Shown in pieces: positions 8,671 through 63,857 of a stretch of DNA of 64,000 nucleotides. The translations under genes and the position numbers were made by a program. The first letter of the stretch is position 1. Each line of letters begins with the position of its first letter. The stretch covers positions 10,262 to 74,261 of the forward strand of contig CAYXYY010000030.1 in the NCBI GenBank assembly GCA_964469495.1, given 5' to 3'. The notes beneath the pieces are model-generated. The model was not told the DNA's origin. It made no database searches and was given only the letters and a program-made list of their open reading frames with translations. This stretch comes from an uncultured Planctomycetia bacterium (GTDB taxonomy: Bacteria; Omnitrophota; Gorgyraeia; S143-82).

Positions 8671-8689
8671 AATCTATCCTCACTTATGC

Positions 8690-10593: not shown

Positions 10594-11125
10594 TACTTAA
10601 CAGCGGAAGGGATTTATCCTTTTCAGATATTATCAACTCATTTACGTCAAAAGGCCAATCAATATTTATATCTTTATCATCAAAGCGGACGCCTCTATCG
10701 CTGTCTTTATTATAGTAATTATCCACTTTATATGCCACAACCGTCCCGTCTTTTAAGGCAACAAATCCATGGCCAAAACCACGCGGGATAAAAAGCTGCC
10801 GTTTGTTCTCTGAAGAAAGCTCCAGTCCAAACCATTTCCCAAAATTAGGGCTGGATTTTCTAAGGTCAACGGCAACGTCAAACACAGCACCGCACACGAC
10901 TCTGACCAGTTTTGCCTGCGCAAATGGCGGCAACTGGTAATGTATTCCGCGCAACACGCCCTTAGAGGAAAGGGATTCATTATCCTGCAAAAACCCATAA
11001 GAGCCTTTTAGAAGTTCTGCGAAAAACGACTTGCGGTACGTCTCCAAAAAATATCCACGTTCATCCTTATACACATCAGGCTCTATAATAAAAACCCCGC
11101 CTAAAGGTGTGCCTATTAATTTCAA
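10574..11125 (-). CDS. rmlC: dTDP-4-dehydrorhamnose 3,5-epimerase
   Basis: 183-aa cupin-type protein. The RGIHYQ and [10 protein letters not shown] motifs are conserved RmlC signatures. Confidence 0.85.
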
Positions 11126-14223: not shown

Positions 14224-14928
14224 CTATCCCGTGCTCCTGAAAAGCGCCCAATCCCCCTCTTGCATAATATATTCCTTGCCTTCCAACTTCAATCTCCCTG
14301 ACTGCCTTACTGCGGAAAGGCTGCCCAACTCTATTATGTCGTCATATTTTGCAATCTCTGCCCTGACAAAACCACGGGCAATATCCGTGTGTATAATGCC
14401 TGCGCATTCATGGGCAGTCTGGCCCAGACGAAACATCCATGCATGGGAATCCTTCTCCCCAGCTGTAAAAAATATACCTCGTCCGAAAATAGCCCACCAC
14501 AAGTCAGGCAAATCAGAGATCTGCGCGTTGCTATCTTCAAGAACAATATACGGAAGCAGGCTGTATATGGGATATTCATTTAACCTGCCTGCCTCATCCT
14601 GCGAGATATCACCCTGTTTTATGCCGTCATACAACGGCCTTTCACTCTCAAGCAATGCCATTGCCTTCTCCAATAATGCCTTGTCCTGAGAGGCCTCTTT
14701 GAGCTTCCTGTCTATAAAATCCATATCGTCAACGATCAGGTCAAAGAGCGCTTCCTGACTGCATATAATGCCTTCGCATGTATTTATCCTATCCTTGCCA
14801 AGAAAAAATGCGGATGCCGGCACGATTTCCTTTGATTTAAAAATCCCCTTCAAGGCCTTTAACCGATCATCTGGTATCTTAACCTTATTTTTAGGGAAGT
14901 TATCCAATCCCAAAACCGCTATATTCAT
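14224..14928 (-). CDS. YchF-like protein reduced to the helical insertion and the C-terminal TGS/DUF933 domain. The G-domain P-loop is missing.
   Basis: The C-terminus AGIIHTDIARGFVRAEIAKYDD...GRLKLEGKEYIMQEGD parallels the YchF TGS domain (IHTDFEKGFIRAE...EGKDYIVKDGD). The N-terminus MNIAVLGLDNFPKNK has no GxxxxGKS. There are only 234 aa, and the upstream gene's stop overlaps the start, so no missing exon is possible. Confidence 0.5.
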   Translation of the reverse strand: MNIAVLGLDNFPKNKVKIPDDRLKALKGIFKSKEIVPASAFFLGKDRINTCEGIICSQEALFDLIVDDMDFIDRKLKEASQDKALLEKAMALLESERPLYDGIKQGDISQDEAGRLNEYPIYSLLPYIVLEDSNAQISDLPDLWWAIFGRGIFFTAGEKDSHAWMFRLGQTAHECAGIIHTDIARGFVRAEIAKYDDIIELGSLSAVRQSGRLKLEGKEYIMQEGDWALFRSTG

Positions 14929-16643
14929 TTTGAGTTATCTCCTTTCTGCTCCCAAAAACTTACCACAGCCCTTAAACTTCCTGATGGACTATTATGCACA
15001 ATAAATCGCTCAAAGTAAAGCGTATCTGGATTGACCCATATGTTTATATAATCTCCATCCCTATCCTGAAATTTCAGGACTATCTTACCGTTATCCTTAA
15101 CAGATGCAATGAGTTTTGCGTTTGATAAAGCCCTGATAAGGCCTTGCAAAGAGAAGTTATCCAACATCTCCATCGCAGTTTTATACTGCGCGCTGTCTTT
15201 TTTTATCGGCGCTTGTCTTGAACCTTCTACTGAGAACAAATCATCTGCCTTGCGCCTGCAAGATATAAACAGGTATCCTGTGCCATCGAAGACCTTCCCC
15301 TGCATCTCCGCCTCTAAATCCGGCAAAAATTGGATAGAGGCCATTGCCTCTAATGCGCCGAATTGGCCTATTGGAATGGAAGAGTTTACCAATATAGCAT
15401 CTGCGCGATATCTCTTCCTGAAACGATTCGCATCTATAGCCTTTTGAATGTCTATTTCAGCGTTTGAACCATTCACCTCAAATCCGCCATACTCCAACGC
15501 CTTGATAAGCCAATCACCTGTTGTCTTAAGCTGAGAAAACATCTGTTTATCCACCCTTTGCAATACCAACATCTGATTACGCAAACAAGGGACATCCAGC
15601 CTATTTATACAATCCTGGGCAGTGACATAATATAAATAACCATCGTCAGGAGTATAGGATTTTAATCTTTGCAGCAGGCCCAAAAACTTGGCGCGCGAGT
15701 CTTTATCCTGCGGCATATCCGCATATACTCTGGCAAGAAGCCTGAGCATAGATATCTTGTGTTTTTTCCCATTAATGCGATTTAGATAAGACTCGCAAAT
15801 CTCTCTAACTTCTTTTGATTCCATTGCATTTGTTTCCAGCGACCACTTGGCGGAAGACTTGGCCACTATTCTTTTAAACTCCTTTGACTTATCGTCAATC
15901 CTGAGGCCCAACAAAAGCTGCCTGGCCGCCTCCTGTTTCTGGCGAGAACGAAAATCCCTGTCTTCGCCTTTAAGCATATCCAATAACTTAAGGTCTATAT
16001 CCTCATCTGAGACAATATGGCCTGACTTGTCCACCTTTATATCTAATTGCTTTAACAGATTCACAATACGTTTATCAGGATGGCCCCTATAATACACATA
16101 AAGCCTTGCAATACGTTGCGCCACTATATCATCGGAAAGCCACAGGTTTATAACCTTATGTACGATCTCTTTGTTCCCTGTGATAAAAAACTCTATCCAC
16201 AATACGTCCGGGTCCTGTTCAAAATCCGTAATATCTACCTTTTTTTGCGATTCAGCCTGTTTAATAACCTTTGCCCGCTCAGGGAACTCTTTTTTTAATT
16301 CAGCTAAGGCCTGCCTTGCCTGAAGGGTCCCTGCTTTACCCATTGCCAAAACCACCAAAGAAAATCCGGTTTTTGCAACCTTACGGGCCAAGTCCTTATA
16401 GTCTTTTGTCAAGTCAGGATATATCTGCAACATTCTTGCAAAACAATAAACCATAGGCATTATATCCCTGCCATTAAAAGCCCCTTTTTCCGCCTGACGG
16501 CACACTGCATTAAGCCCGGAAAGAACCTCAGATTTGTTCGGATTTTTATAAAATCCCCTTGGAAAGGCATTGCCAAAACCGCTATTAATAAATCCGAAGA
16601 AAATGGAAAACACCAACAAAAACACAAACCGTTTTTTAATCAT
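14925..16643 (-). CDS. Hypothetical secreted protein (572 aa) with an N-terminal signal peptide.
   Basis: Long ORF whose hydrophobic N-terminus (VFLLVFSIFFGFINSGFG) looks like a signal peptide. I recognise no catalytic motif. Confidence 0.45.
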   Translation of the reverse strand: MIKKRFVFLLVFSIFFGFINSGFGNAFPRGFYKNPNKSEVLSGLNAVCRQAEKGAFNGRDIMPMVYCFARMLQIYPDLTKDYKDLARKVAKTGFSLVVLAMGKAGTLQARQALAELKKEFPERAKVIKQAESQKKVDITDFEQDPDVLWIEFFITGNKEIVHKVINLWLSDDIVAQRIARLYVYYRGHPDKRIVNLLKQLDIKVDKSGHIVSDEDIDLKLLDMLKGEDRDFRSRQKQEAARQLLLGLRIDDKSKEFKRIVAKSSAKWSLETNAMESKEVREICESYLNRINGKKHKISMLRLLARVYADMPQDKDSRAKFLGLLQRLKSYTPDDGYLYYVTAQDCINRLDVPCLRNQMLVLQRVDKQMFSQLKTTGDWLIKALEYGGFEVNGSNAEIDIQKAIDANRFRKRYRADAILVNSSIPIGQFGALEAMASIQFLPDLEAEMQGKVFDGTGYLFISCRRKADDLFSVEGSRQAPIKKDSAQYKTAMEMLDNFSLQGLIRALSNAKLIASVKDNGKIVLKFQDRDGDYINIWVNPDTLYFERFIVHNSPSGSLRAVVSFWEQKGDNSK

Positions 16644-31053: not shown

Positions 31054-33753
31054 CTAAAACTGCTTTTCATACACTAATCTAAAAATATGCCTCGTATCCA
31101 ATGCGCTCATATGCCAGTAATCGCTGTCCGAATCATATCCGGCATATTCTCCCCACATCGCCTTTAGATATTCTTCTTCTGAGAAATTATATTTATATCC
31201 CACAAAAAAGTTGTTGTGAGACTCGTAATCCAAATTTCCTTCTATTTCATACTTATACACGTCGTATAAACGTGAATACGTATATGAGAAAAACATCTCT
31301 GCCTTTGGTCCGAGTTTATATAATGCCTCAAACCCAAAGTGACTGCCATTGTCGTCTATGCCCGGCATTGCATATTTATTCTGGTTCTTTGTAAAAGAAA
31401 ACGTAAGCTGTAAATCCTCTAACGGAGTTAAACCAGTCTTCATTTTTATTATATGATAATAATCATATGGGGGCAAGCCAAATATGCTCTGATCGTATAA
31501 AAAAGGAACAATTTTATCCCACATATAATCGCCTATTATTTCATCTGTGACATAAGTGCTGCACAAAAGTACCCTTGGGAAAACCATAGGGTCATTTGTC
31601 TCTTCAAAACCGAGTTCAAAATAGGCATTATCGTCGATATCATAACGGCCGGCTATACCAAAATGGCCGATAGAAGGATCCTTTCCCGCCTCTATTGCCG
31701 TGTTTTGCAAAGCCTCATTTTGCCCGCTGTAATAGTCGCTGATGTCATATAGGTTGTCCGCATAGATTAACGGGTCCTTATCAACCTCTGTATCAGGCAA
31801 TGCCTTATACCAAGCCAAGGCTTTCAATGTTAACTTATCAACAGGTGAAGCCGTTGCCTCTAATCTGCCAAGGGTCTCTATGGGAACGCCTCCATCACTA
31901 TGGACGTTTCTGACAAACACGTCCCAATTCGTATTCCATAAATCGAAATTCGCATATATCCCGGCAGCGGACCTGCCTCTGTCTATCCCATCGCCATAAG
32001 TCTCTATGCCTTTCTTGCGATTTTCTTCTTCGTCAAAGGTTATGTGCTTGCTCGCCTCTGTCTCTATCCTCGTATATCTATATGAGGAAAGTCCCGGTGA
32101 AAATTTATCTCCCATATAGTTATAGTAAAATTCTATTTTATTAATAGGCCAATGCAATGGTTGGAATTTTATTCCATATGCATAATCATCATAATACGTT
32201 TTCGTATCGTTGGCTTCATCAATTGTTGAAGAACTGTGGGCAACCTCACCTGATACCAAAACACCAAACAATTGTTTTGCCCCATCAATAGCCCACACAT
32301 AATTTTCAGCCTCAAGGTCATCACTGTCATTGAATCCCAGCTTTGAACTAAAAAAGGCTCCTATATAATCATTGGAATCGTCCTCAAAATAATATTTCCA
32401 ACGCGTTGCCCCGTCCAATGAATTGACATCTGAATAATCATCCCACAATGTCATAGGCAAGGCAATTGTGGCTTGCCCTTCAACAGAACCTTCTTTAATA
32501 GAAAAGCTGGCTCCCCTTAAATACGTAAGCCTTTCCCATTCACTATCACGAACGTATGCAGATATATTATGCTGCCATTTCCCTCCTTTAAGCGGATATC
32601 CAGGCCTTAAAAACCTACGGCTTGGGCTATACGTATCTATCCACGGGCTTTCTTCCCAATCTTTCCTATTATCAGAAAGCCGCATAAGATCGTCGCTCTT
32701 CAACGCCTCTTGCTGCGATGAAATCAGAAATACTTTGCCGCTAAATCCATCCGATTCATTTCCGTAATCAAACCATAGTTTTCTGATTATATTCCACCTC
32801 TCGTGGAGATCTTCCCCCCCAATTGTATTGAAATCAGTGTACCAATCATAAATACCCGTTGGAGTGTATGGAGAAAGTTTTCCATCAACTACCTTGATAT
32901 TGTTAAAAACCAATATATTGCCATATTTTGTCCTGAATGTTTCATTCATTGTCTGCCCGGTTGCAAAGAAATATTTCAATCTAACATTTGCTGAATCCAA
33001 ACCATTCGTACTTGTCACCTCGGCATCTATTGTGCCAACGTATGACCATGGGTCCAAAACTAATTGCGCATACAAATTTATCGCATCAGAAAAATCTGTA
33101 TCTATATTTAGTTCCAGTCTATCATAGACCTTTGGATCAAACGTATTTTCATGTTCTTCACCCCAGATATAGCGCCAGTTCTTCTCGTATGGAACAGCAT
33201 TCTTATCCGGATTGGCATCCTTCCATAGTATATCTCCGTCGGAATTCACCTCCCCTGCCAATCTGATCTTACCTGTTATATGGACATTAGAATCGGTTTT
33301 ATCCTCTGCAGACTCACTCGGCATGTGTGTTATAGGCGCAGGTTTTTTAGGAGATATTTCTGAAGGGCTTTGCATAACCTTATTCGATCCTGCAGCCAGT
33401 TTCTGTTCCATATACGCCTTCATTGCAAACCTGCCTGCGTTTTCTTCTTCATGCAAGGCCCTTTCCCCCTCTTCCAAACTCGCCAAAAAATCTGCCATTG
33501 CAACCTTTTTTTTCTGCTCCTCGCATAAGATTTCAACACCTTTTAGAGACACAATAACAGCCAATGCTTCTTTATTTTCCGGATCTTGATCTAATGCAGA
33601 TAATGCATCTTCATAGGCTGATTGATAGTCTTTCATGGCAAATTCCTCTTTGGCAAGTTGGGCATAATAACTTGCCTGACTAGCCCTTGCAATTCCCTGC
33701 GCCAAAAACGTTATCAATAAAAAAAATAATAAAACTCTTTCTATTCTAAACAC
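31054..33753 (-). CDS. Large secreted protein (899 aa) with an N-terminal TPR-like segment and an aromatic C-terminus. It is probably an outer-membrane beta-barrel.
   Basis: It has a signal peptide and ends ...RLVYEKQF. The C-terminal half is rich in Y/W/G/D, as in beta-barrels. It is the first gene of the glycan-utilisation-like cluster. Confidence 0.4.
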   Translation of the reverse strand: MFRIERVLLFFLLITFLAQGIARASQASYYAQLAKEEFAMKDYQSAYEDALSALDQDPENKEALAVIVSLKGVEILCEEQKKKVAMADFLASLEEGERALHEEENAGRFAMKAYMEQKLAAGSNKVMQSPSEISPKKPAPITHMPSESAEDKTDSNVHITGKIRLAGEVNSDGDILWKDANPDKNAVPYEKNWRYIWGEEHENTFDPKVYDRLELNIDTDFSDAINLYAQLVLDPWSYVGTIDAEVTSTNGLDSANVRLKYFFATGQTMNETFRTKYGNILVFNNIKVVDGKLSPYTPTGIYDWYTDFNTIGGEDLHERWNIIRKLWFDYGNESDGFSGKVFLISSQQEALKSDDLMRLSDNRKDWEESPWIDTYSPSRRFLRPGYPLKGGKWQHNISAYVRDSEWERLTYLRGASFSIKEGSVEGQATIALPMTLWDDYSDVNSLDGATRWKYYFEDDSNDYIGAFFSSKLGFNDSDDLEAENYVWAIDGAKQLFGVLVSGEVAHSSSTIDEANDTKTYYDDYAYGIKFQPLHWPINKIEFYYNYMGDKFSPGLSSYRYTRIETEASKHITFDEEENRKKGIETYGDGIDRGRSAAGIYANFDLWNTNWDVFVRNVHSDGGVPIETLGRLEATASPVDKLTLKALAWYKALPDTEVDKDPLIYADNLYDISDYYSGQNEALQNTAIEAGKDPSIGHFGIAGRYDIDDNAYFELGFEETNDPMVFPRVLLCSTYVTDEIIGDYMWDKIVPFLYDQSIFGLPPYDYYHIIKMKTGLTPLEDLQLTFSFTKNQNKYAMPGIDDNGSHFGFEALYKLGPKAEMFFSYTYSRLYDVYKYEIEGNLDYESHNNFFVGYKYNFSEEEYLKAMWGEYAGYDSDSDYWHMSALDTRHIFRLVYEKQF

Positions 33754-33778: not shown

Positions 33779-35170
33779 TTATCCAGAGTGTTCTGTTAGT
33801 TCTTTAATCGAACTCTTTACGGCTAAACTCTGCAACTGGCTAGGAGTCTCTCCCTGCCAAAGCGCCTTTAGGACATAATAGGCCTTTTTAGGAATTCTCT
33901 TATTGATACCCTTCTCCCCTTTGCGTCTAGATATTCTAACTATGCCCCACCATTCCTCATTCATATTTAAATTTTTCGGAGCAGCTATATCATGATAATA
34001 GCCTCCACAAGACCAATCCCCTTTCATATCGTGCACCATCCAGGATTTTGGATTAAAATGGTCGCTCTTCCACCATTCATCCGTCCATTCAAAAACTATT
34101 CCTCCTAAAACGTTTCCCCATCCTTTATTCCCGGGCAAATTTTTGCTTATCTCTTTCCACAACTCGCCTATATATAAAGATTGGATGGCCTCATCTTCCC
34201 TTTTTTGGACAGCATCAAGACTGTCTGCCCCAAATTCCATTACAAAGAACGGCTTCTTCCACATATGATGCATATCTCTCCACACATGCCCGAAACTCTT
34301 CCCCAAAAACAGTGTCAATCCAGCGATATCAACGTTTTTACATTCATCCCCGGCTATATCCATAAAACGCGTTCCCCCATTTCCAAGGGCAACGACTCGG
34401 GAAGGATCCATTTGTTTAATCATACCTGCCAATTCATTGACAAAAGAATAATAAATCCTGGCTTTCTCTTCCCTGCGTTTCATGGGGTCCCGTTCCTTTA
34501 TCAATTCCGGTGTTGTCCAGACATTAACGTTTTCTGGACCAAAAGAAAAATTGTTTTCATTACCCAAAACCCACATAATAATGCCCGGTTCATCTTTTAA
34601 CTGCCTCACCATATTCAATACTTCCTGCTTTACATATGAACGGAATGTCCCATCAGCATAATTTGGACTGTTCCAAAAACCAAGCCAATTACCCATAATA
34701 GTATAGATACCGTATTCTTCATACATATACCTTATAAACTGCTTTGCGGCCTCTATATCCGGACTGAGGCAATAAAATCTTATCACGTTAGCCCCCATCT
34801 GCTTTATCAACGGCCCGTCAACATCCGCTAATCTTTTCCCCTGCTTAAAGAAATCAAATTCCCAATTCTTTCCCGGAGGTATTGGTTGATAGACAACTCC
34901 CTTTATAACAAAAGGCCTTCCATATACAGAGAGTATCTGCTGTCCATTATTTGTGGGCACGATTTCAGATATCTTACCCGCAACCTTGATTTCCTTTGTT
35001 GAGAAAGAATTATTATTTCCATTGGCAGATGCCTCAACAGACGCATTATTCAAGAACAAAACAAAACCCATCAAGAACATATAATAGAGTGAGGGGGCAA
35101 CAAGCCCCCTCACTAATACTCTCCAACAGGTCTTTCTATCTATGTGTTTATTCTTCAAAAACAACATCAT
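33779..35170 (-). CDS. Secreted clan GH-A TIM-barrel glycoside hydrolase (GH2/GH5-like catalytic domain only).
   Basis: It has a signal peptide. WVLGNENNF matches the GH-A acid/base motif (WSLGNE in GH2). It is a paralog of the 36412-38328 gene. Confidence 0.55.
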   Translation of the reverse strand: MMLFLKNKHIDRKTCWRVLVRGLVAPSLYYMFLMGFVLFLNNASVEASANGNNNSFSTKEIKVAGKISEIVPTNNGQQILSVYGRPFVIKGVVYQPIPPGKNWEFDFFKQGKRLADVDGPLIKQMGANVIRFYCLSPDIEAAKQFIRYMYEEYGIYTIMGNWLGFWNSPNYADGTFRSYVKQEVLNMVRQLKDEPGIIMWVLGNENNFSFGPENVNVWTTPELIKERDPMKRREEKARIYYSFVNELAGMIKQMDPSRVVALGNGGTRFMDIAGDECKNVDIAGLTLFLGKSFGHVWRDMHHMWKKPFFVMEFGADSLDAVQKREDEAIQSLYIGELWKEISKNLPGNKGWGNVLGGIVFEWTDEWWKSDHFNPKSWMVHDMKGDWSCGGYYHDIAAPKNLNMNEEWWGIVRISRRKGEKGINKRIPKKAYYVLKALWQGETPSQLQSLAVKSSIKELTEHSG

Positions 35171-36344
35171 CTAAATAAAACACGGCTCCTTCAGGATTGA
35201 CATCGGCATTTGTAACCCAGCAAAAACCGCCTATGATATAGGACATATCTTTCCCTGAAAGGTCTATCGTGTACTGCTTCCATTCAGTAGTTAACACTAT
35301 AGGACCTATATCTGCTGCATCTGAATCCGAATACTTGCCCTGAACACCTCCTACCTTGAACTGCTCAATCCTTTCTCCGCCTTTCTCTCCTCTTGCCCAA
35401 AACGTCAACTTCTTGGCCTTGCTAAGATCATATCCACCATCCAAAAGGCCCCAATTGTTTGCAGGATTAAGCCAATAAACACCAGCCCATCTTGCGCCTT
35501 GCGATGCCTTTGCTGTGTATTCAAAACGAATACAGGTATCACCGCTATGAGGATTCTCTTCAGATGCCTCATCCATCTTTATATCACCCCAGTCTCCCAT
35601 ATAACCGGATGGCACATAATGGTTATTAACAGACCTCTTGTCTGTATAAACAGCAAACGGCATAGGTTCTGCGCCTTTCAGGTTTGCCTTTAAGTCAGGA
35701 TCATACTCAAGTTTGATATCATCGAGGTAAAACGTACATCCGTCGGGATTCTGCCCCGCCTGCAAAATAAAAGCAAAACCGCCACTGATATAGCTCAAAT
35801 CCTTTCCAACGAGATTTATCGTATACTGCTGCCACTCATCACTAAGCTGTACAGGGCCAAAATCCACTTCCGTTGTATCTGCATAAGAACCCTTGATGCC
35901 TCCTACTATAAACTTAGCGATTATTTCATCTCCGTACTCTCCTCTTGCCCAGAAGGTCAATTTATTCATTGCAGATAAATCATAACCACCCTGCTTAGTT
36001 CCCCAGTTATTTGCGGGATTCTGCCAATAGACCCCAACCCAACCTTTCTTCTGACTTTTGTCAGCAGTATAAATAACCTGGATGCAGGTCTTGCCTTCTT
36101 TTACGTTTTCCGTGTATTCCTCATTCAAACGAACATCATTGTAATCGCCCATATAACCCGATGGGATATAGTGATTACCCGGAGCCCCTTTGTCGGAATA
36201 TATATAAAATAAATCCTTGTTGGAAACCTGAATTCCTTCCGTCTTTGCCGCGTGCGCCATTCCACAGGCAAAGAATACCCCTGCTAAGATGACTGCCCAA
36301 ATCCTGCGCATAACCATACCTCCTTTTTTAGACCTATAACACAA
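35148..36344 (-). CDS. Secreted protein made of two tandem ~190-aa repeats. It is probably a carbohydrate-binding protein.
   Basis: The internal duplication is obvious: ...NHYIPSGYMGDYNDVRLNE...GWVGVYWQNPANNWG...GGYDLS...KLTFWARGE versus ...NHYVPSGYMGDWGDIKMDE...RWAGVYWLNPANNWG...GGYDLS...KLTFWARGE. A signal peptide is present. The likely start is an internal Met near 36317. Confidence 0.5.
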   Translation of the reverse strand: MCYRSKKGGMVMRRIWAVILAGVFFACGMAHAAKTEGIQVSNKDLFYIYSDKGAPGNHYIPSGYMGDYNDVRLNEEYTENVKEGKTCIQVIYTADKSQKKGWVGVYWQNPANNWGTKQGGYDLSAMNKLTFWARGEYGDEIIAKFIVGGIKGSYADTTEVDFGPVQLSDEWQQYTINLVGKDLSYISGGFAFILQAGQNPDGCTFYLDDIKLEYDPDLKANLKGAEPMPFAVYTDKRSVNNHYVPSGYMGDWGDIKMDEASEENPHSGDTCIRFEYTAKASQGARWAGVYWLNPANNWGLLDGGYDLSKAKKLTFWARGEKGGERIEQFKVGGVQGKYSDSDAADIGPIVLTTEWKQYTIDLSGKDMSYIIGGFCWVTNADVNPEGAVFYLDDVVFEE

Positions 36345-44139: not shown

Positions 44140-45684
44140 TTATCTCTGTTTATTCATGGCAAACAATCGCCTTATAAAATCATCTGCCATAAACTTGATA
44201 AATCTATATGTATCCCTTACTGGATTAATATGGCTTTTTGCATCCTCGTGATAAATGCTTTTAACCGGCACAGATAGAATATCCCATTTTTTATCACGCA
44301 CCCGCAATATTATATCTGTTTCTATTTCATACTTATCCCCTGAAAGCGCATCGGGATTAATAGCCGACAGCCTTACCAAACGAAAGCCACACTGCGTATC
44401 TTCTATCCATTTCCCAACATAAAGGGATATAATCAAGGACATAATCCTGTTCGTAAAAAGGCGAATAATCGGCATATCTTGCGGATTGCGCAATCTTGAA
44501 CCGCATACCATACCAACGTTTTCAAAAGCGCACTCCAAAAACTTATCTATATCTTCGCTAACGTGCTGGCCGTCGGCATCCATAAGCAATGCCCATTTAA
44601 ATCCCTTGCGTTTGGCGTATCCCAGCCCCTCTTTTATTGCAACACCCTTGCCTTCATTGCACGAAAAAGACACCACGTCTATCCAAGGATAACCCGCAAG
44701 AACCTCCATAGTATTGTCGGTAGATCCGTCGTTGATAACTATTATATGGTAATTCAACGGCCTAAGCTCGCCCAGGACCCTGCCTATTATCTTTGCCTCA
44801 TTATACGCAGGAATAATAATACAAAGTTCTTTCGCATCTATCTGCTCCGGGGCTTCGTTTATATGCCCAAACATATACCATTGGCCGTAATATTTACTAA
44901 CACACCCCTCTATTGCCCTTGCGCAAAGCTGATGAACCTGTTCTCTGCTTTTCCCTTCAGGATAAATAGGGGCAGATATATTCAGCGTATAGGTACCGTC
45001 TTGGTTTCTTACGGAAAAAGTCGGCACAATGGGGCAATTCTTTCTAACGGCAAACGTTGCCGGGCCGGCAGGCATAAGTATCCTCCTTCCGAAAAATTCA
45101 GCTGGCAAAACCGCCCTTTTGCCTGAAAAATCCCAATCCCCAACCAATGCAAGGCACTTATCCCCGTTCAAAACCCTCAGGCATTTTGATACAGAACCCG
45201 TGGGTATTATCTTTAAATTATGAGCAAGCCTGCCTTGGTCAAAAAAATCATTGATGCGGCCATCCTTATGGGGCAAGGCAATGGCATACATATCATAACC
45301 GGCCTCTCCCAACCGCATCCCGCCAGCCTCCCAATTGCCTATATGAGCCGTAAGCAGGATAACGCCCCTGCCCTTTAAAACGGCCTCTTTCAAAAAAGCC
45401 TCATTGTCTATATCCACCCTCTTCATCAGGGCGGTTTTGTCAACGGAAAACCAGATAAAATCCGCCCAATATTTTACGAACTCACACAACACCTTTCTTC
45501 CGTCCCAAAATGCCCGCCAATACCTAAAATCCTCGCCTTGGGCAAGGCGGAAATTTCTAACAATCCGCTTTTGGTCTGCAGGGGATAAAAAGTATTTTAT
45601 GCTTGCAAAAAAACATAATACCGCCTTGCTTTGAGATGGAAATCTCGGGATTAAAAACCTTGCTATTCTATAAACCCACCACAT
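44140..45684 (-). CDS. Bifunctional fusion. The N-terminal half is a lysophospholipid/lipid A-type acyltransferase (LPLAT, HtrB/LpxL-like). The C-terminal half is a GT2 glycosyltransferase (DPM1-like).
   Basis: The N-terminal half contains RGVILLTAHIGNWE, the HtrB-like acyltransferase motif. The C-terminal half contains IIPAYNEAKII...VINDGSTDNT...DADGQH, the GT2 DxD region. 514 aa. Confidence 0.7.
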   Translation of the reverse strand: MWWVYRIARFLIPRFPSQSKAVLCFFASIKYFLSPADQKRIVRNFRLAQGEDFRYWRAFWDGRKVLCEFVKYWADFIWFSVDKTALMKRVDIDNEAFLKEAVLKGRGVILLTAHIGNWEAGGMRLGEAGYDMYAIALPHKDGRINDFFDQGRLAHNLKIIPTGSVSKCLRVLNGDKCLALVGDWDFSGKRAVLPAEFFGRRILMPAGPATFAVRKNCPIVPTFSVRNQDGTYTLNISAPIYPEGKSREQVHQLCARAIEGCVSKYYGQWYMFGHINEAPEQIDAKELCIIIPAYNEAKIIGRVLGELRPLNYHIIVINDGSTDNTMEVLAGYPWIDVVSFSCNEGKGVAIKEGLGYAKRKGFKWALLMDADGQHVSEDIDKFLECAFENVGMVCGSRLRNPQDMPIIRLFTNRIMSLIISLYVGKWIEDTQCGFRLVRLSAINPDALSGDKYEIETDIILRVRDKKWDILSVPVKSIYHEDAKSHINPVRDTYRFIKFMADDFIRRLFAMNKQR

Positions 45685-50676: not shown

Positions 50677-51768
50677 TTATAAAGAGGATTCTATGTTCTT
50701 CATTAAATCAGGCAGGTATTTTTTCCAAGAAAGCTCCTTTTCTATAATAGATAGGGCCTCTTCCTTATAGCTTTGCCTTGCCTTTTCGTCAGACATCAAG
50801 CGTTCAAGCACATAATCAAAGTGTTTTCTATCCTTTATATCAACGGCAAGTTCCAAGTCCTTCCAAATGCCCTTTTTGGGCAAAATGCTAACGCCGCCCG
50901 CCTTCCATATCTGCCAATACACGCTGTCCCACCCGCTCTCATTGAACACAGAAGGCAAATGAAGCACCAAAGGCACAGACTGCACCGCCTCGGCTAAGGC
51001 CTTAAAAGAAGGATAACCCAACAGAATATCTTGCATTTCCCAAGAAAACTGACTCAAACGCTTCTTCAATAAGCTTCTGTACTTCTGCATATAGTAATAA
51101 TCTATATCATCCAACAGCTTTATCTCTAAAAGAGTTCCCCGAATTATCTCAGGTAAATATGATGATACATTGTCAAAATCCGGATTGTCCATTTTAATGG
51201 CCCTCTCATACACGGACATATATTCCTGTGAATATCCCACGAAATTCCTGTCCTCATCTATTATAGATTGCCACAAAAAAATCTTATTTGACTGTGGCCT
51301 TGCAACTATTTTCTTCTGTCTTAGATATCCCATAGACAACGGCAGAAAGGACACGTTTTCCATACCAGAGCGATTTGCCAATTTCAAATACGCTTTGTTA
51401 GCAAAAGTAAACTGTTTACAATTTTTCATAATACGAAATAGCGTAATCCATCTCTTTATTGTTTCAAAAGGCAAATCCATATTAATGGAAATATATGGTA
51501 TTTCCTTGATTTCTAATAAAGGAATCTTCATCATACCGAATTCTTTAATCAGATCAAAGATATAAGAACCATAGGTAAAAATCACATCTGGCCTGTTTTT
51601 TGATAAGAAATCCTCAAACTGGGCCATATTATCCCTAAAGTAATCCAAGTTTTCCTTGAATATGATAACATTATATCCTAATCGTTCGAGTTCATATGCG
51701 ATATCCCTGTTGAGCAAGAAATCCTCTAGAACAAGCCCGGGAAAAAACATAATCTTACGTATCTTCAA
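50677..51768 (-). CDS. Hypothetical protein, possibly a CgeB/DUF3880-like glycosyltransferase-fold protein. It is in the flagellar glycosylation island.
   Basis: 363 aa with no clear motif. Its stop overlaps the start of the Maf-like gene. Confidence 0.3.
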   Translation of the reverse strand: MKIRKIMFFPGLVLEDFLLNRDIAYELERLGYNVIIFKENLDYFRDNMAQFEDFLSKNRPDVIFTYGSYIFDLIKEFGMMKIPLLEIKEIPYISINMDLPFETIKRWITLFRIMKNCKQFTFANKAYLKLANRSGMENVSFLPLSMGYLRQKKIVARPQSNKIFLWQSIIDEDRNFVGYSQEYMSVYERAIKMDNPDFDNVSSYLPEIIRGTLLEIKLLDDIDYYYMQKYRSLLKKRLSQFSWEMQDILLGYPSFKALAEAVQSVPLVLHLPSVFNESGWDSVYWQIWKAGGVSILPKKGIWKDLELAVDIKDRKHFDYVLERLMSDEKARQSYKEEALSIIEKELSWKKYLPDLMKNIESSL

Positions 51769-53672
51769 ATCAAACCTTCCTTTTTATATAGTTTCAAGGA
51801 ATCTCTATATAGGTCCAAGACGTCCTTTGAGGCCTTCATTATGCCCTCCCAAAATGCCAGTATAGTCTCAAACCTATCCTTATGAGAAACATCTTCTGTA
51901 AATGTCAGATACTTCTTTACCAGCAACGTCACCATACCTGCCAGAAGCTGGCAAAAACCTATCTCCTCCTCATAGTCCTCAAACAGTTTATCTATTATAG
52001 TATTTACCTTCAATAAATCCTGCTCCTGCCAGACGTTTTTCCTTCTCCCTTTCTTATATATCTGTTCTATTGTTCCAAATGCCTTTTTAACGTCTTTATT
52101 AAGTCCGTTATACCGCCTGATAATCTTTCTCATCTTCTTTGATATCCCCTTCATATCAATATCCGCCACAGAGTATCTCGCAAAAACCTCTGCTCTGCCC
52201 ATTATATCCATATCAGGTTGAAGGCCCTTACAGAACCTTTCGTAGGCCTCATCAGGCGGCATATTAACCGCGCCTTTTATCTTCATTCCCCTCGTCTTTG
52301 CGTCAATAACGTTTACTCTTAGAGAATCTATCATCCTTTCAAAGGTTATGCCAAAGGTAAGAAAGATGGGCTCGGTAATCACCTCCCCGCCGTCAACCGC
52401 TTCTACCCTTTCCAAAAATGTCAAACTCTTCTTCGTTGGGTCATCGCTATTTATCTTTAACAACAATTCGTTGCCTGCCCTATCTTTGACTATTGTCAAT
52501 TTTCTCTGATAAGAAACACCGGGAACGTACGCCTCATCTATATCAGGATAAGAGAGATCCTGTCCTATCAGGATAATCGGGTCCCCTCCCATATAAAATG
52601 CAAACAAAAAGGCCATATGCGATGTTGTCGGCCCTTTAACCATATTAGATTTAAAGTGAAAATACCCCTGTAAATAATGGTTATAATACGTCGTAAACAT
52701 AGGGCCTTTCCACATAGGGAATATCTCCGAATACATATCGCTATCCGCTATAAGAATAATATCCTTCATATCCTCCTCAGAAACGCCTTCATAGTGCCGT
52801 TTATTTTCAGGCGTAAAATCCATTCCTATCACAAAGTCCGGTTTAACGCCGTTTTTTAACAAAGGCTTTAGGGCAGTATCAACTGCAACGATGGGCGCCT
52901 TTCCCTTTGCCTTTTTCAAGACATCTATGGCGGTTTTCAAGGAAGGGCCCGGTGAAACACAAAAAATCGGCCTGTCTTTAAAAGCAGATAGCCAACCTTC
53001 AACGCCGGGACACTTGACCAAGTAAGGTAAATTCCTAAAGGAATTCTCCATTGTCTTAAAACTAACGACCAAGACCGTTGTCGCCATTGTACTGCTATAC
53101 ATTATATCGTCTTCCACAACCGTTTTTAACTGACTGAACTTCTCAGGGAATAATCTGGTTATGGGTTCGTAAAACATCAAAAGCGGCCGCCATAAGACCC
53201 TTGGCTGGTTTTTCTTGTTGATTATATTCATCGCCTCTATGGCAGTTGCTCCGACAACAAACGTAATGCGCTCGTCCATTATCCAACTGGTAATGTCTCT
53301 GGCAGACAAGAGCAGCCTAAACAAACTCAAATCAGCCTCCAATACATTTATACTCTCAAGACGCTCTTCCAAAAGCAGGTCTATATGATAACCAAGCCCT
53401 ATTCCAAATACAAATACCTCCAGCCTCTTTGTGAAATCATAGGATTTCACAAACCTCTCTGCCTCTTTTTCAGGGTCATATCTGCTGTGCAGGTATTTCT
53501 TTGAACCGTTATCTACAAAGACAATAGTCTTGCTTCCGTTTTGGGCATCATCCAGAACAAAACGGCCTGAGAGAGGTGTTGACTTTACCTTTTGATATAG
53601 ATTGAAGTCTTTGCTTTTAAGCGCATCTAAGTTTTTCTCCAATATAGTGTATTGTTCCACATCGCTTGGCAT
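51765..53672 (-). CDS. Motility-associated factor (Maf)-like protein with a DUF115 (MptE-like) domain. It is a putative flagellin nonulosonic-acid or glycan transferase.
   Basis: The central region FCVSPGPSLKTAIDVLKKAKGKAPIVAVDTALKPLLKNGVKPDFVIGMDF matches the DUF115 core of Maf proteins. 635 aa. It lies 5' of the fliC-fliD block. Confidence 0.6.
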   Translation of the reverse strand: MPSDVEQYTILEKNLDALKSKDFNLYQKVKSTPLSGRFVLDDAQNGSKTIVFVDNGSKKYLHSRYDPEKEAERFVKSYDFTKRLEVFVFGIGLGYHIDLLLEERLESINVLEADLSLFRLLLSARDITSWIMDERITFVVGATAIEAMNIINKKNQPRVLWRPLLMFYEPITRLFPEKFSQLKTVVEDDIMYSSTMATTVLVVSFKTMENSFRNLPYLVKCPGVEGWLSAFKDRPIFCVSPGPSLKTAIDVLKKAKGKAPIVAVDTALKPLLKNGVKPDFVIGMDFTPENKRHYEGVSEEDMKDIILIADSDMYSEIFPMWKGPMFTTYYNHYLQGYFHFKSNMVKGPTTSHMAFLFAFYMGGDPIILIGQDLSYPDIDEAYVPGVSYQRKLTIVKDRAGNELLLKINSDDPTKKSLTFLERVEAVDGGEVITEPIFLTFGITFERMIDSLRVNVIDAKTRGMKIKGAVNMPPDEAYERFCKGLQPDMDIMGRAEVFARYSVADIDMKGISKKMRKIIRRYNGLNKDVKKAFGTIEQIYKKGRRKNVWQEQDLLKVNTIIDKLFEDYEEEIGFCQLLAGMVTLLVKKYLTFTEDVSHKDRFETILAFWEGIMKASKDVLDLYRDSLKLYKKEGLI

Positions 53673-53734
53673 AAGAATATCCCCTTATTATATTGACAAA
53701 CCCCTTGTTCTCTCTTAAAATATCTCTCATTACT

Positions 53735-53807
53735 GCCGGGATAGCTCAGGAGGTAGAGCGCAGGCCTGAAAAGCCTGGCGTCCCCAGTTCGACTCTGGGT
53801 CCCGGCA
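53735..53807 (+). tRNA. tRNA-Phe (anticodon GAA), 73 nt. CCA is not encoded.
   Basis: I folded it by hand. Acceptor GCCGGGA/TCCCGGC, D-stem GCTC/GAGC, anticodon stem CAGGC/GCCTG with loop CTGAAAA, T-stem CCCAG/CTGGG with T-loop TTCGACT. It is followed by a T-run. Confidence 0.85.
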
Positions 53808-53811
53808 CTTT

Positions 53812-55368
53812 TTATTTTCTATTAATAAAGTACTCCTTCCATAACCATAAAATATGTCTCATTATAACCGGCTGTGGATAACTTTCAAACCGTTTTGTTA
53901 TCTGCCCAAATGAACACGGAAAAGGCATAGACAGGATATCCTTCAAAAGCTTCACGGACATATCCTCTCCATGCGCCTCATATAAAAACAACCCGGATTT
54001 ACCTTCCACGACATCCCTTCCAAATTCGGTTATCTCAAATTGCGCATCTTCAAACATTATGTCTTCTGTCATATAATGCGCAAAGAGTTTAGAAAAAGGC
54101 ATCTTCCACTTCACGTCCCTTTCTCCTGCCGGGTGTTCCATTGCGCCATTTTTCAACCTATCCCACAGTCTTTCGTACTGTTTTACAACCTCTTTCCAAG
54201 AAAACCTTTCCTTTACAAGTTCCAACGCGCGATTTCCCATTCGCTCTGCCAATGACCTGTCGGAAGAAATCCTGCGCATACGGTCCAGAAGCATATCAAT
54301 GGAAACCACTGTGGTTTGGGCAAACGCGAAATGCGACATATTCTCATACATAAAAACCGCTTCTCTTTCTATTTGCTCCCACACATCTAATGAAGCAATC
54401 GTATCAATCAAAAATCCTGTTTCACCATCAACAACTATTGACTTGTATCCGTCCCAATCACTTGCAATAACCGGAAGGCCGTAACTAGCGGCTTCAAGCA
54501 AGGTCAGGCCAAAGGTCTCCTGCAAATTATCGCTAAGAGAGATAAAACAATCCGCCAAGCTGTATAATAATGCCTTCTCATCTTCATTGATATCCTCATA
54601 GACCTTAACCCTGCCTGCAAGGTTATGCTTTTCTATAAACATCCTTACTATGTGGGAATAATTGCTTTCAGCCGAACTGCCGGCAATAATCATCCGCGCG
54701 TCTTTGTTTTCTTTTGATAAAAGATAAAATGCCCTAATCATTGGAAACAAATCTGCCTTACTATATTCAGATATCCTTCCTATATACAGGAAAACAAAGC
54801 TATCCTCATCATAACCAGCGCGCTGTTTTGCATCGTTTACCCGCGCGTTTTCTTCCGCGCCAAATGGTATAACATCAATATAAGGAGCAGATTTTAATCC
54901 TAAATACGCAAAGGCATTTTCCAAAACGGTTTTTGCCGTCGGACTCGTTGCAACGATAGCATCCCAACTTTGACACACATCGTATTTCATAAATTCCAAC
55001 ATAAAACGCGGATAACTAATAGAATGCGTCAGCCCAAACACAGGCACAGACCTTGCAAATACATTGCGCCAAGAAGCCACCGGTCCAATACACACGTCCG
55101 GCTGAAGAATAACCTGATAATCGTTTCTCAGAAACAGGCGTTTTGCCTCATTGCGCAAAAACACCTTTACCCTTTTTCCCCGAGCGCCGGATAAGAATCC
55201 GGCTGATTTGAAGAAATTCTCCCTTTCATATAAATCGCCCAGAAAAAAATGAACCTCATCTATTGAGGAATAATCTAGTATAGCGGATAAAAGGGATTGG
55301 TTGGCAACTGTCCTGCCATAAACACCTCTGGACTCTGATAGAGAATCAAAGCATGCAATCGCCTTCAT
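53812..55368 (-). CDS. Glycosyltransferase family 4 (GT-B, group 1) with a long N-terminal extension.
   Basis: The C-terminal GT4 motif SLSDNLQETFGLTLLEAASYGLPVIASDWDGYKSIVVDGETGFL is present. 518 aa. Its start abuts the fliS stop. Confidence 0.75.
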   Translation of the reverse strand: MKAIACFDSLSESRGVYGRTVANQSLLSAILDYSSIDEVHFFLGDLYERENFFKSAGFLSGARGKRVKVFLRNEAKRLFLRNDYQVILQPDVCIGPVASWRNVFARSVPVFGLTHSISYPRFMLEFMKYDVCQSWDAIVATSPTAKTVLENAFAYLGLKSAPYIDVIPFGAEENARVNDAKQRAGYDEDSFVFLYIGRISEYSKADLFPMIRAFYLLSKENKDARMIIAGSSAESNYSHIVRMFIEKHNLAGRVKVYEDINEDEKALLYSLADCFISLSDNLQETFGLTLLEAASYGLPVIASDWDGYKSIVVDGETGFLIDTIASLDVWEQIEREAVFMYENMSHFAFAQTTVVSIDMLLDRMRRISSDRSLAERMGNRALELVKERFSWKEVVKQYERLWDRLKNGAMEHPAGERDVKWKMPFSKLFAHYMTEDIMFEDAQFEITEFGRDVVEGKSGLFLYEAHGEDMSVKLLKDILSMPFPCSFGQITKRFESYPQPVIMRHILWLWKEYFINRK

Positions 55369-55371
55369 TCC

Positions 55372-55812
55372 TTATGCAACCTTTTTCAACTGCTCCTGGC
55401 CGCTGTTGGAAGATTCTTGATCTTGATTCTGCGTTTCTTCATTTTGCGGATTAGTCAACATCTGCGCCCATGCATCCCTTATAGCGGAAAGCCATGATAT
55501 CACTTGTTCCAAAAGCTGAGGCTCTTTTCTCAAATTCGCGACAACAGAACTCTGATAACAAAAGTTGTATATTGCGCGCAGGTTGTCCGAAATCTCTCCT
55601 GCATCATCGTTTAATGCCAAGGTAAGCTCCGATAAGATGCGTCTTGCGCGAAACAGCTTTTCATTACACATCTCATATTCCTTGTTAATCATATGCTCCT
55701 TGGCCTCTGAAAAAAACCTTATCATCCCATTATACAGGTAAAGCACTGCCTTACCGGGACTGGCCGTCTCTAAATTCATTTGGCGATAACGCGCATAGGC
55801 ATTCTTTAACAT
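55372..55812 (-). CDS. fliS: Flagellar export chaperone FliS.
   Basis: MLKNAYARYRQMNLETASPGKAVLYLYNGMIRF is a typical FliS N-terminus. 146 aa. It is immediately downstream of fliD. Confidence 0.85.
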   Translation of the reverse strand: MLKNAYARYRQMNLETASPGKAVLYLYNGMIRFFSEAKEHMINKEYEMCNEKLFRARRILSELTLALNDDAGEISDNLRAIYNFCYQSSVVANLRKEPQLLEQVISWLSAIRDAWAQMLTNPQNEETQNQDQESSNSGQEQLKKVA

Positions 55813-60357: not shown

Positions 60358-60750
60358 TTATATATACTTATCCAAAATCATACCAACTGCATCGTGTATC
60401 TTTATCATAGCTTCCACCATCTCCTCAGGCGGAATCTCTTTAACGACCTCGTTGGTTTCAGGGTTTATCACCTCTACATATGCAAAATCCGTGCCATCGA
60501 CAAAGAGATGAAATTTTAAATCCTTGCTAAAGTCCTTCATCATATCATTCAGATTATCCACTGCCTCTTGGGCAAGAGACAGGACCTCTTCCTTGCTCAT
60601 TGATTGAATAGCGCCTGCCTGGCCATTAGACTCATCCTTGGGTGCTGAAAAGGCCTGTTTAACCGACTCCGTCACAGCCTCATCCTGCAGATTCTTCACT
60701 TCCGATGCATTCGGTTCTACAGGGCCTAGGCCTTTTATATCCATTTCCAA
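60358..60750 (-). CDS. flaG: Flagellar protein FlaG.
   Basis: 130 aa. It sits between fliC and fliD, as is typical. The C-terminal region (...FAYVEVINPETNEVVKEIPPEEM...) fits the FlaG family. Confidence 0.65.
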   Translation of the reverse strand: MEMDIKGLGPVEPNASEVKNLQDEAVTESVKQAFSAPKDESNGQAGAIQSMSKEEVLSLAQEAVDNLNDMMKDFSKDLKFHLFVDGTDFAYVEVINPETNEVVKEIPPEEMVEAMIKIHDAVGMILDKYI

Positions 60751-60800: not shown

Positions 60801-60830
60801 AAAAAAGGGGAGGGCAAGCCCTCCCCTTTT
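60801..60830 (-). terminator. Rho-independent terminator after fliC: GGGGAGGGC-AA-GCCCTCCCC followed by a U-run on the minus-strand transcript.
   Basis: Seen directly: a 9-bp GC-rich stem with an A6 tract on the plus strand, which is a U6 tract for the minus transcript. It is 8 nt downstream of the fliC stop. Confidence 0.65.
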
Positions 60831-62552: not shown

Positions 62553-63857
62553 TTAAAAACTCCACCTCATACGCAAGTATACGTTTTTATCTTGTTCCAT
62601 CTGGCCAAACTCCGATGTGTCGCGCTTTCCCCAGATTAGATTTGCGCCAACCGTAACGTTGAAGTTATCCGTGACGTCCCAGCTCACATACGGCCTCCAA
62701 TAGGTATCCCTGTCTGTTTCGCTATAAAACACAAACAAGCCCGTACGCACTGTCTGGTTTTTAAATAGTTTTGTTAGACGCAATGTGCTAAGGTGGTAAT
62801 ACCTGTCATAAATAATGTCCCACGGCATACGCGCATCATAATAGTTGTTGTAATTCAGCATTTGCTCAAACAGGTGCTGAACACCTATACTAAAGTCATG
62901 TCCAAGGTCCTTTTCATAACCAACCAAAAACTTTACGCGGTCATTCGGGATAAGCCTATTGGTTCCGCTCCTGTCCTTGCGCGAATCATAATAACCGAAT
63001 TCAACACTGCCGATTCCCCTGAAAATAGCCCCTCTCAACGATGCGCCGTAAACCGACAGTCTTGGATAGAACACGACCTTGTTCATCTCGTCATAAAAAC
63101 CCCTCGGGCTCTTATAAAAGCCATCGTAAAAGTAAAACGCCCATTCATAACCCGAAACATTGCCGTACCAGCGCGCGGCGTATTCCGCATTGCCAAGCGT
63201 CCTGTCAGGCCTGTGAACAGAAAACGAAGAAGACGCGCCAACTATCCCCTGCTGAAATACGTCGTAAAAAGACAGCCTCGTGCCATTAGGCACTGTATTA
63301 GACTCCACAAACGGCAAATAGACCAAGTCTATATTCGAGTTTTTCAAATAAATAGAGGCCTTTGTGCCGTAAGACGGCTTTTTCAGGTATTCATCGTTCC
63401 TGCCGATAAAGAAAGAGACATAGTCCTTTGGGAACAGGTCATTGATAAACAGATAATCGCCGGTTCCCCAAGTAAATATCTGTTTTCCAAGTTTCACGTC
63501 CATAAAAGACGCAGGCGAAACAGACAAGGAAAACTCCCTAAAGGTCTTGTCCAAAGTCGTGTCAAAATACTCGTCTAATGTAAGCTCTGCCTTTATGTTA
63601 AGCTCTGCGTTCCAGTCGTATAAAAAGGCAGGATTCTCCGGAAAGAGCCTTGTCTTTAACTGGAGTTTCTGTTCTGCCAGATTGTAATGAGTGTGCTTTG
63701 TGTCTTCGTCGTGGTCAAACTTTACCCCAAAGTCAGTCTCTATAAACCCATATACCCTTGGCCCGTTTTTGCCAAGCCTAAAGGCATACGCCTTGGAAAA
63801 CAATCCTACGCACAAAGATAAAACGACAATGACAAATAATTGTTTTTTTACCATCAT
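62553..63857 (-). CDS. Putative outer-membrane beta-barrel protein (434 aa) with a signal peptide and a C-terminal Phe.
   Basis: Signal peptide MMVKKQLFVIVVLSLCVGLFSKAYA. Y/G/W-rich alternating pattern. It ends ...RMRWSF, an OMP beta-signal-like terminus. Confidence 0.5.
   Translation of the reverse strand: MMVKKQLFVIVVLSLCVGLFSKAYAFRLGKNGPRVYGFIETDFGVKFDHDEDTKHTHYNLAEQKLQLKTRLFPENPAFLYDWNAELNIKAELTLDEYFDTTLDKTFREFSLSVSPASFMDVKLGKQIFTWGTGDYLFINDLFPKDYVSFFIGRNDEYLKKPSYGTKASIYLKNSNIDLVYLPFVESNTVPNGTRLSFYDVFQQGIVGASSSFSVHRPDRTLGNAEYAARWYGNVSGYEWAFYFYDGFYKSPRGFYDEMNKVVFYPRLSVYGASLRGAIFRGIGSVEFGYYDSRKDRSGTNRLIPNDRVKFLVGYEKDLGHDFSIGVQHLFEQMLNYNNYYDARMPWDIIYDRYYHLSTLRLTKLFKNQTVRTGLFVFYSETDRDTYWRPYVSWDVTDNFNVTVGANLIWGKRDTSEFGQMEQDKNVYLRMRWSF

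Follow-up and report, generated by a model that had tools for sequence, protein, structure and literature searches.

A putative flagellin glycosylation module with a linked antisense tRNA-Phe gene in the flagellar filament locus of an Omnitrophota bacterium

In a 64,000-nt stretch of contig CAYXYY010000030.1 (assembly GCA_964469495.1; hereafter, the window), from an uncultured bacterium assigned by GTDB to the Omnitrophota, a tRNA-Phe gene lies antisense among the genes of the flagellar filament, next to maf, which encodes a Maf-type flagellin glycosyltransferase. This arrangement raises the question of whether the glycosylation genes were acquired as an islet at the tRNA gene, as the first-pass annotation had suggested, or belong to the filament genes by descent, and what their products would do. 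Based on the comparison with related lineages and on the domain content of the encoded proteins, we consider it likely that the locus is the distal part of a flagellar filament operon with a vertically inherited three-gene flagellin glycosylation module, composed of a glycosyltransferase of family GT4, Maf, and orf363, a protein of 363 amino acids (aa) with a predicted GT-B fold.

Every gene between approximately 44 and 64 kb of the window is encoded on the minus strand and, in the sense of transcription, the order is fliC, flaG, fliD, fliS, GT4, the antisense tRNA-Phe, maf and orf363 (Table 1). The earlier description of maf as lying immediately 5′ of fliS-fliD-flaG-fliC is correct as to strand; nevertheless, maf is located downstream of fliS and is not adjacent to it. 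Likewise, the tRNA-Phe with anticodon GAA is located on the opposite strand between GT4 and maf, as had been described and as both ARAGORN and Rfam found, but 139 nt (53673-53811) separate the stop codon of GT4 from the start of maf; the 62 nt previously given for this gap measure only how far the 5′ end of the tRNA-Phe is from the maf ATG.

Inheritance of the module and of the adjoining tRNA gene

Related loci, all on metagenome contigs, were found through homologues of Maf or orf363; therefore, genomes without these genes could not be detected. Together with the window, these loci represent eight lineages (the window, L003-L007, L008, L009/L010, L011-L013, L014/L015, L017 and L018), and one of the seven further lineages is labelled Candidatus Omnitrophota, a single label from which this phylum is also probable for the window. 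The Maf proteins are 61% identical to that of the window in L003-L007, 59% identical in L008 and, in L009/L010, L011-L013, L014/L015 and L018, 35-38% identical where measured. The complete order fliC-flaG-fliD-fliS-GT4-maf-orf36x is kept in L003-L008, L009/L010, L011-L013 and L014/L015. L018 carries GT4-maf-orf36x, while L017, in which maf is truncated and the GT4 end is missing, carries maf-orf36x and was identified through orf36x. The sizes of the products vary little among the relatives (FliD, 1487-1495 aa; GT4, 498-528 aa; Maf, 630-648 aa; orf36x, 351-382 aa), and so do the gene junctions: an ATGA or TTGA shared by the end of maf and the beginning of orf36x is present in seven of the eight lineages, and GT4 directly adjoins or overlaps fliS. 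The GT4 gene of the window starts 3 nt past the fliS stop.

Between the window and L009, the identities are 76% for FliC, 61% for FliD, 47% for FliS, 43% for FlaG, 38% for Maf, 35% for GT4 and 25% for orf363, and the rank order of the module proteins is the same in near and far comparisons. All the proteins of the module have thus diverged in proportion, which indicates that the module diverged as a unit.

The antisense tRNA-Phe adjoins the module in all eight lineages. Its 73-nt sequence is identical throughout or differs by one base in the D-loop, its CCA end is never encoded and, at the same place ahead of it, a TTGACA -35 element plus a TAnAAT-like -10 element is found in each of the eight. 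The position of the tRNA gene follows one of two arrangements. In the window, L003 and L008, which form a clade with 100% bootstrap support, the tRNA-Phe separates the GT4 stop from the maf start; in L009, L011, L014, L017 and L018, it lies a few nucleotides after orf36x. In four of the latter (L009, L011, L014 and L018), GT4 runs directly up to or into maf. The genes located past the tRNA-Phe (past orf363 in the window clade) differ by lineage, and those located upstream of fliC also differ. On these comparisons, the tRNA-Phe appears as a long-standing neighbour of the module and as a synteny boundary which, in the window clade, would have swapped places with the maf-orf363 pair in a local rearrangement, so that the operon is now split by it. 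Such a swap could have arisen, with the gene ends intact, if maf-orf36x-tRNA had been duplicated in tandem and copies had then been lost.

Genes for tRNAs are frequent integration sites, and islands integrate on their 3′ side. An islet integrated horizontally at the tRNA-Phe would be in agreement with the end of the conserved gene order at this gene in every lineage and with the low total GC content of orf363 (0.373, z = -2.3). Nevertheless, the low GC content stems from the amino acid composition of the protein; the GC content at third codon positions (GC3) is normal, with z values of -0.2 for orf363, +0.4 for maf and -0.9 for GT4. The maf and orf363 genes are located on the 5′ (promoter) side of the tRNA-Phe, while the core filament genes occupy its 3′ side. 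No integrase or transposase was found among the approximately 56 open reading frames (ORFs) taken in by the Pfam scans of the window, nor in the Pfam families precomputed for the related loci, and no tRNA-derived repeats beyond chance 10-12-mers were found in the window and seven related loci. Additionally, the divergence of GT4, Maf and orf363 parallels that of FliS and FlaG, and the comparison across genomes that had been proposed as a check revealed no difference in presence or absence around the tRNA: module and tRNA occur together in eight of the eight lineages, down to Maf identities of 35%, with no empty site among the loci recovered through Maf or orf363 homologues. We therefore regard acquisition as an islet at the tRNA gene as highly improbable. 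Judged by sequence comparison, the module is not a recently acquired island but is long-inherited.

Predicted roles of Maf, GT4 and orf363

The assignment of a DUF115 Maf-like protein in the first-pass annotation was borne out by HMMER, with a match to PF01973 (MptE-like/DUF115) of 125.3 bits over residues 210-376, well above the cut-off of 34.6 bits, and with a match to Maf_flag10_N (PF20157) of 31.9 bits against a cut-off of 23.5. The solved structure of a Maf protein from M. magneticum, 5MU5_A, is matched by residues 85-374 of the window Maf with an E value of 2.6e-7. The Mafs characterised in the reports cited here O-link pseudaminic acid (Pse), legionaminic acid (Leg), N-acetylneuraminic acid (Neu5Ac) or 3-deoxy-D-manno-oct-2-ulosonic acid (Kdo), activated with cytidine monophosphate (CMP), to Ser or Thr residues of flagellin (10.1101/2020.06.03.131540; PMC11339370), and Maf acts in the cytoplasm ahead of chaperone binding and export (PMC4065374).

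The GT4 glycosyltransferase, also described previously, was upheld by its match to Glycos_transf_1 and by its EX7E motif (QETFG...LEA; E284 and E292), which is invariant across seven orthologues. The protein has a C-terminal extension of approximately 120 aa that is present in all orthologues, with W508 and K511 invariant, and that has no family assignment. The best NCBIfam matches of GT4 are BshA, glycogen synthase and exopolysaccharide (EPS) enzymes. Its match to the CgeB-type family PF13524 (Glyco_trans_1_2) is marginal, at 26.2 bits against a cut-off of 25.

The third gene, previously reported as an uncharacterised protein of 363 aa, is a real ORF with no Pfam or NCBIfam match. Word-indexed searches found three to four homologues, and when 1.84 billion representatives were scanned in full with HMMER, only eight clusters were found at E<=1e-10. 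All the family members on contigs longer than approximately 1.3 kb are encoded directly 3′ of a maf gene. The AlphaFold model of orf363, built from the nine-sequence alignment, is confident, with a predicted local distance difference test (pLDDT) of 87.4 and a predicted template modelling score (pTM) of 0.87, and presents two Rossmann-like domains that superpose on known GT-B enzymes. The higher-scoring structural matches are T4 AGT, PimA and BshA, above the GtfA/GtfB-type proteins. Only seven residues are invariant in the nine sequences of the family (D22, F37, D61, E86, P91, Y92 and G291), and most of them are located in the N-terminal (acceptor) domain.

Two assignments of orf363 were rejected. 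One was the CgeB-like label of the earlier annotation (PF13524/DUF3880): none of the nine family members has a glycosyltransferase or CgeB Pfam match at E<=10, and the marginal PF13524 match at this locus is that of GT4. The other was a relationship with GT4, since hhalign against the neighbouring GT4 family gave a probability of 2.5%.

The central region of FliC (aa 146-385) consists of 28% Ser plus Thr, and FliC is the presumed acceptor of the glycosylation. For the acceptor, the donor sugars and what GT4 and orf363 do, as well as for the structure of the transcripts described further below, we infer a scheme. Maf would O-link a CMP-activated, sialic-acid-like sugar to flagellin, at Ser or Thr residues of its central, surface-exposed domain, before FliS binds and the protein is exported. 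GT4, with its EX7E motif intact, would use a nucleotide-sugar donor to add a second sugar or to extend it, and orf363, translationally coupled to maf, would either attach one more sugar or serve as a partner of Maf. The pathway of the donor sugar would be encoded outside the window.

This last proposal agrees with the earlier statement that the window has no nonulosonic-acid biosynthesis genes: no NeuB, CMP-transferase or CMP-sugar synthetase, DegT or Epimerase_2 was found by Pfam among the approximately 56 ORFs scanned across it. Indications of the donor come from the relatives. Past the tRNA-Phe, L009 and L011 encode hydrolysing UDP-GlcNAc 2-epimerases of the NeuC/NnaA type, with scores of 338 and 336 bits, respectively, against a cut-off of 235.9; L009 additionally encodes, in the same region, a PseC/LegC-like aminotransferase, a weak LegB-like short-chain dehydrogenase/reductase (SDR), WbqC and a PIG-L deacetylase. 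An SDR similar to that of L009 is present in L018, and a NeuB follows the Maf of a Planctomycetota relative. These neighbour genes favour a nonulosonate donor of the legionaminic or neuraminic type, with CMP-Kdo as the fallback. The domain matches, the coupled gene ends, the conserved order and the nonulosonate-type neighbours in relatives together give good support to the flagellin glycosylation locus around Maf that had originally been proposed.

The sugar-nucleotide genes past the tRNA-Phe extend over positions 13108-17722 in L009, 13193-15029 in L011 and 4805-6348 in L018, and a methyltransferase gene is among them; in the window clade, the slot past the tRNA-Phe is occupied by maf-orf363 instead of sugar-nucleotide enzymes. 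Elsewhere in the window, an rmlA-rmlC-rmlB-rmlD cluster for dTDP-rhamnose is located at 7888-12006 on the minus strand, 40 kb from the flagellar locus and with no link shown to it. The cluster is followed by a gene for a 260-aa formyltransferase-like protein of low GC3 (z = -2.1), which could make a formylated dTDP-amino-sugar.

Several results weigh against the inherited flagellin glycosylation module as we propose it. The score of the window Maf with the NCBIfam PseD model NF050051 is 82.3 bits, far under the cut-off of 670, and for this reason the protein is best classified, from its sequence, as a distant Maf and not as a PseD orthologue. In Shewanella, a tetratricopeptide repeat (TPR) domain at the C-terminus of Maf-1, or the cis-encoded GlfM for Maf-2, was found to be needed for flagellin binding (10.1101/2023.12.03.569772). 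The window Maf has no Pfam match to a TPR domain, and a small GlfM-like partner was not found either, the minus-strand ORFs of at least 60 aa between 49.9 and 55.8 kb being the named genes only. Neither a nonulosonate synthase nor a CMP-synthetase was found in the window, nor was either found in the 10-kb sequences that flank the loci of the Omnitrophota relatives. The nine sequences of the orf363 family have neither an EX7E motif nor a conserved C-terminal acidic pair, and the protein may be non-catalytic. Finally, the outgroup-rooted Maf tree places the root between the two tRNA arrangements, with weak support for the clade in which the tRNA follows orf36x. In neither of the two outgroup loci is maf flanked by a GT4 gene or a tRNA, and the only hint that the contiguity of GT4 and maf is ancestral comes from the abutting or overlapping gene ends in the other clade.

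A main target other than flagellin would be either the giant FliD cap or a non-flagellar surface glycan, in the latter case with a link to the operon that reflects co-expression only. Such a target would fit the very large FliD (1494 aa), whose Ser/Thr-rich repeats are encoded in the same operon, the generalist character of GT4 enzymes, of which this one has its best matches among the BshA, glycogen synthase and EPS enzymes cited above, and the lack of donor-pathway genes in the window. Nevertheless, the characterised Mafs covered by the sources above all act on flagellin, the gene ends are coupled tightly to fliS, which encodes a flagellin-specific chaperone, and it is the central domain of flagellin that is rich in Ser and Thr. 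In light of this evidence, we consider a non-flagellin target unlikely.

FliD deserves a separate description. It is two to three times the usual size, and this size is kept within 1487-1495 aa. The protein contains at least six tandem repeats of approximately 113 aa, with anchors near aa 175, 288, 401, 516, 629 and 740; Tandem Repeats Finder gave nothing useful on fliD, as the repeats are too diverged, and they were seen by a repeat search and at the protein level. Within the FliD_C region, an F5/8-type-C/NedA-like galactose-binding domain is inserted at aa ~1290-1370. Across the five loci compared, the identity of FliD is 61-84%, which exceeds the conservation of FliS and FlaG. A giant cap that bears a lectin domain could be an adhesin, and the giant FliD may be more unusual than the glycosylation module itself.

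The flagellin glycosylation module that we favour leaves two possibilities for orf363, and one of them can be taken further. GT4, Maf and orf363 would then constitute a new multi-component flagellin glycosylation system, in which orf363, a lineage-restricted protein with a degenerate donor-binding motif, would be an acceptor-recognition or activating partner of Maf and, optionally, the tRNA-Phe a transcriptional insulator that sets the ratio of Maf to filament expression. The idea of orf363 as a partner of Maf arises because this Maf has neither TPR nor GlfM and orf363 sits in the coupled downstream slot that is usual for GlfM. We regard this extended proposal as speculative and rather unlikely.

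Transcription signals, coordinates and neighbouring genes

The tRNA-Phe has a cloverleaf structure with the GAA anticodon, and its Rfam score is well above the threshold of 29 bits; the CCA end is not encoded. It is convergent with GT4, and its trailing T-run overlaps the final GT4 codons. The promoter of the tRNA-Phe, located 13 nt upstream of the gene, is the highest-ranking sigma-70-like site between 49.5 and 64 kb, and the second-best site in these 14.5 kb is located in the 3′ end of GT4, facing maf. The latter, a candidate maf promoter, lies within coding sequence, where its conservation is inseparable from protein constraint; thus, it is hypothetical.

The genes from flaG through GT4 are closely packed. 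Ahead of fliC, approximately 155 nt upstream of its ATG, there is a sigma-28-like promoter, a consensus match whose second element agrees in 7 of 8 bases. Directly after the fliC stop codon, we read a hairpin followed by a T6 tract, which was overlooked by the promoter/terminator scanner; from this terminator, fliC would be largely its own transcription unit.

The transcripts of maf-orf363 would either cross the tRNA gene in antisense or begin just upstream of it, within GT4; in both cases, the transcription of maf would run head-on against the strong promoter of the tRNA-Phe. The RNA antisense to the tRNA-Phe folds into a cloverleaf-like mirror structure. We discarded this region as an intrinsic terminator: it has no U-tract, and its fold is comparable to that of shuffled sequence (z = -0.42). 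Since the U-tract is missing, read-through into maf is possible.

The antisense tRNA-Phe could also be functional in the operon, either as a head-on roadblock or insulator or, in the mRNA, as a mirror-cloverleaf processing site, uncoupling or tuning maf-orf363 with respect to the filament genes. Such a role would be in keeping with the retention of both the linkage and the antisense orientation in eight of eight lineages whose outer flanks differ, with the closeness of the tRNA 3′ end to the stop codon of the gene convergent with it, ~1-10 nt in every lineage, with a promoter that is the strongest sigma-70-like site of the region, and with an antisense fold that, while cloverleaf-like, would allow read-through. 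Nevertheless, two genes may stay linked in a few related lineages simply by descent, shuffled sequences fold as stably as the antisense RNA does, and, with the tRNA found at two alternative positions, neither of them is required. We consider a function of the tRNA-Phe in the operon decidedly unlikely; it is an ordinary and probably essential housekeeping gene, driven by a strong promoter of its own.

Table 1. Features of the flagellar filament locus and of its glycosylation module, with their positions in the window.
Feature	Positions	Strand	Evidence
fliC, flagellin, 475 aa	60838-62265	-	Flagellin_N, E 2e-37; Flagellin_C, E 1.9e-27
flaG	60358-60750	-	PF03646, E 6.4e-18
fliD, giant filament cap, 1494 aa	55827-60311	-	FliD_N, FliD_C and F5_F8_type_C_2 matches
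fliS, flagellin export chaperone	55372-55812	-	PF02561, E 1.3e-31; TIGR00208, 83.8 bits (cut-off 53.75)
GT4, retaining glycosyltransferase (GT-B), 518 aa	53812-55368	-	Glycos_transf_1 (PF00534), E 1.2e-27
tRNA-Phe(GAA), 73 nt	53735-53807	+	ARAGORN; Rfam RF00005, 65.8 bits, E 1e-12
maf, Maf-type flagellin glycosyltransferase, 635 aa	51765-53672	-	PF01973, E 2.8e-36; PF20157, E 1.2e-7
orf363, orphan protein with predicted GT-B fold, 363 aa	50677-51768	-	TTG start overlaps the maf stop (TTGA)
tRNA-Phe promoter, TTGACA-17-TAAAAT	53693-53721	+	Top sigma-70-like site in 49.5-64 kb, 11/12
Candidate sigma-70-like promoter in the GT4 3′ end, facing maf, TTGAAA-16-TATAAT	53861-53888	-	11/12, second-best in 14.5 kb
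Sigma-28-like fliC promoter, TAAA-N15-GGCGATAA	62395-62421	-	Pattern search; consensus match only
fliC terminator, hairpin GGGGAGGGC-TTG-CCCTCCCC, then TTTTTT (T6)	60801-60826	-	Read from the sequence

On the same strand, 3′ of orf363, an orphan ATP-binding cassette (ABC) ATPase gene is followed by rplU, rpmA, obg, rpe and lipB. Upstream of fliC, an ORF of 434 aa at 62553-63857 on the minus strand has no Pfam or NCBIfam match; its N-terminus is signal-peptide-like, and its composition resembles that of an outer-membrane protein. The strongest terminator of the region (62525-62500) is located directly after this ORF. Farther away, at 44140-45684 on the minus strand, an ORF of 514 aa combines a PF03279 domain (lipid A biosynthesis acyltransferase) with a PF00535 domain (GT2 glycosyltransferase), and a GT28 gene similar to monogalactosyldiacylglycerol (MGDG) synthase adjoins this fusion. 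Three further minus-strand ORFs have no Pfam match at E<=1e-5, namely those at 14925-16643 (572 aa), 31054-33753 (899 aa) and 35148-36344 (398 aa); the last two sit among GH2-like and sugar ABC transporter genes.

Comparison with known systems

As in the genomic islands targeted to tRNA genes, surface-modification genes form here a block that is edged by a tRNA, where synteny also ends. Unlike in such islands, no integrase, attachment-site (att) repeat, compositional bias or presence/absence polymorphism was found at the locus, and the block located 3′ of the tRNA consists of core filament genes that have been co-inherited with it. The locus thus offers a counter-example to the rule that a tRNA beside surface-modification genes marks an island, with co-inheritance and a small local rearrangement in its place.

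In the accessory Sec system, O-glycosyltransferases of the GtfA/GtfB type consist of a catalytic GT4 enzyme and a non-catalytic partner of GT-B fold. The window resembles this pair in that one operon encodes both a GT4 with an intact catalytic motif and a protein of GT-B fold that lacks a conserved nucleotide-sugar motif. The likeness is one of analogy only: there is no detectable sequence homology, and orf363 is coupled to maf and not to GT4.

With the group II flagella glycosylation islands (Fgi) of Aeromonas, the locus shares a Maf accompanied by extra glycosyltransferase genes in a flagellar locus (PMC7874193). In Aeromonas, the Fgi glycosyltransferases lengthen a glycan linked through pseudaminic acid (PMC7874193) and, by analogy, the presence of Maf with additional glycosyltransferases points to more than one sugar in the glycan. 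The extra enzymes differ: in the present locus they are a GT4 extended at its C-terminus and a GT-B protein that is an orphan, without Pfam or NCBIfam relatives.

The locus also resembles the Maf systems of flagellin glycosylation in general. The window Maf has the central DUF115/MptE-like domain and the N-terminal domain and resembles 5MU5, its gene is located near those of flagellin and FliS, and NeuC-, PseC/LegC- and LegB-like genes adjoin the module in relatives; the differences are the lack of nonulosonate synthesis genes in the window and the other host phylum. The locus is a further case of the known Maf-type class and does not overturn the current understanding of it. Nevertheless, it extends Maf-type flagellin glycosylation to flagellated Omnitrophota, a phylum whose flagella have received little attention and go unmentioned in the two large genome surveys consulted. 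Compared with the Mafs that depend on TPR or GlfM, the window Maf has no TPR, and no gene for a GlfM-like four-helix bundle of ~90 aa is located 3′ of maf; instead of GlfM, a 363-aa orphan GT-B-fold protein is encoded in translational coupling with maf. A Maf without TPR or GlfM that is always accompanied by a GT4 and an orphan GT-B protein is a candidate for a third solution to the binding of flagellin.

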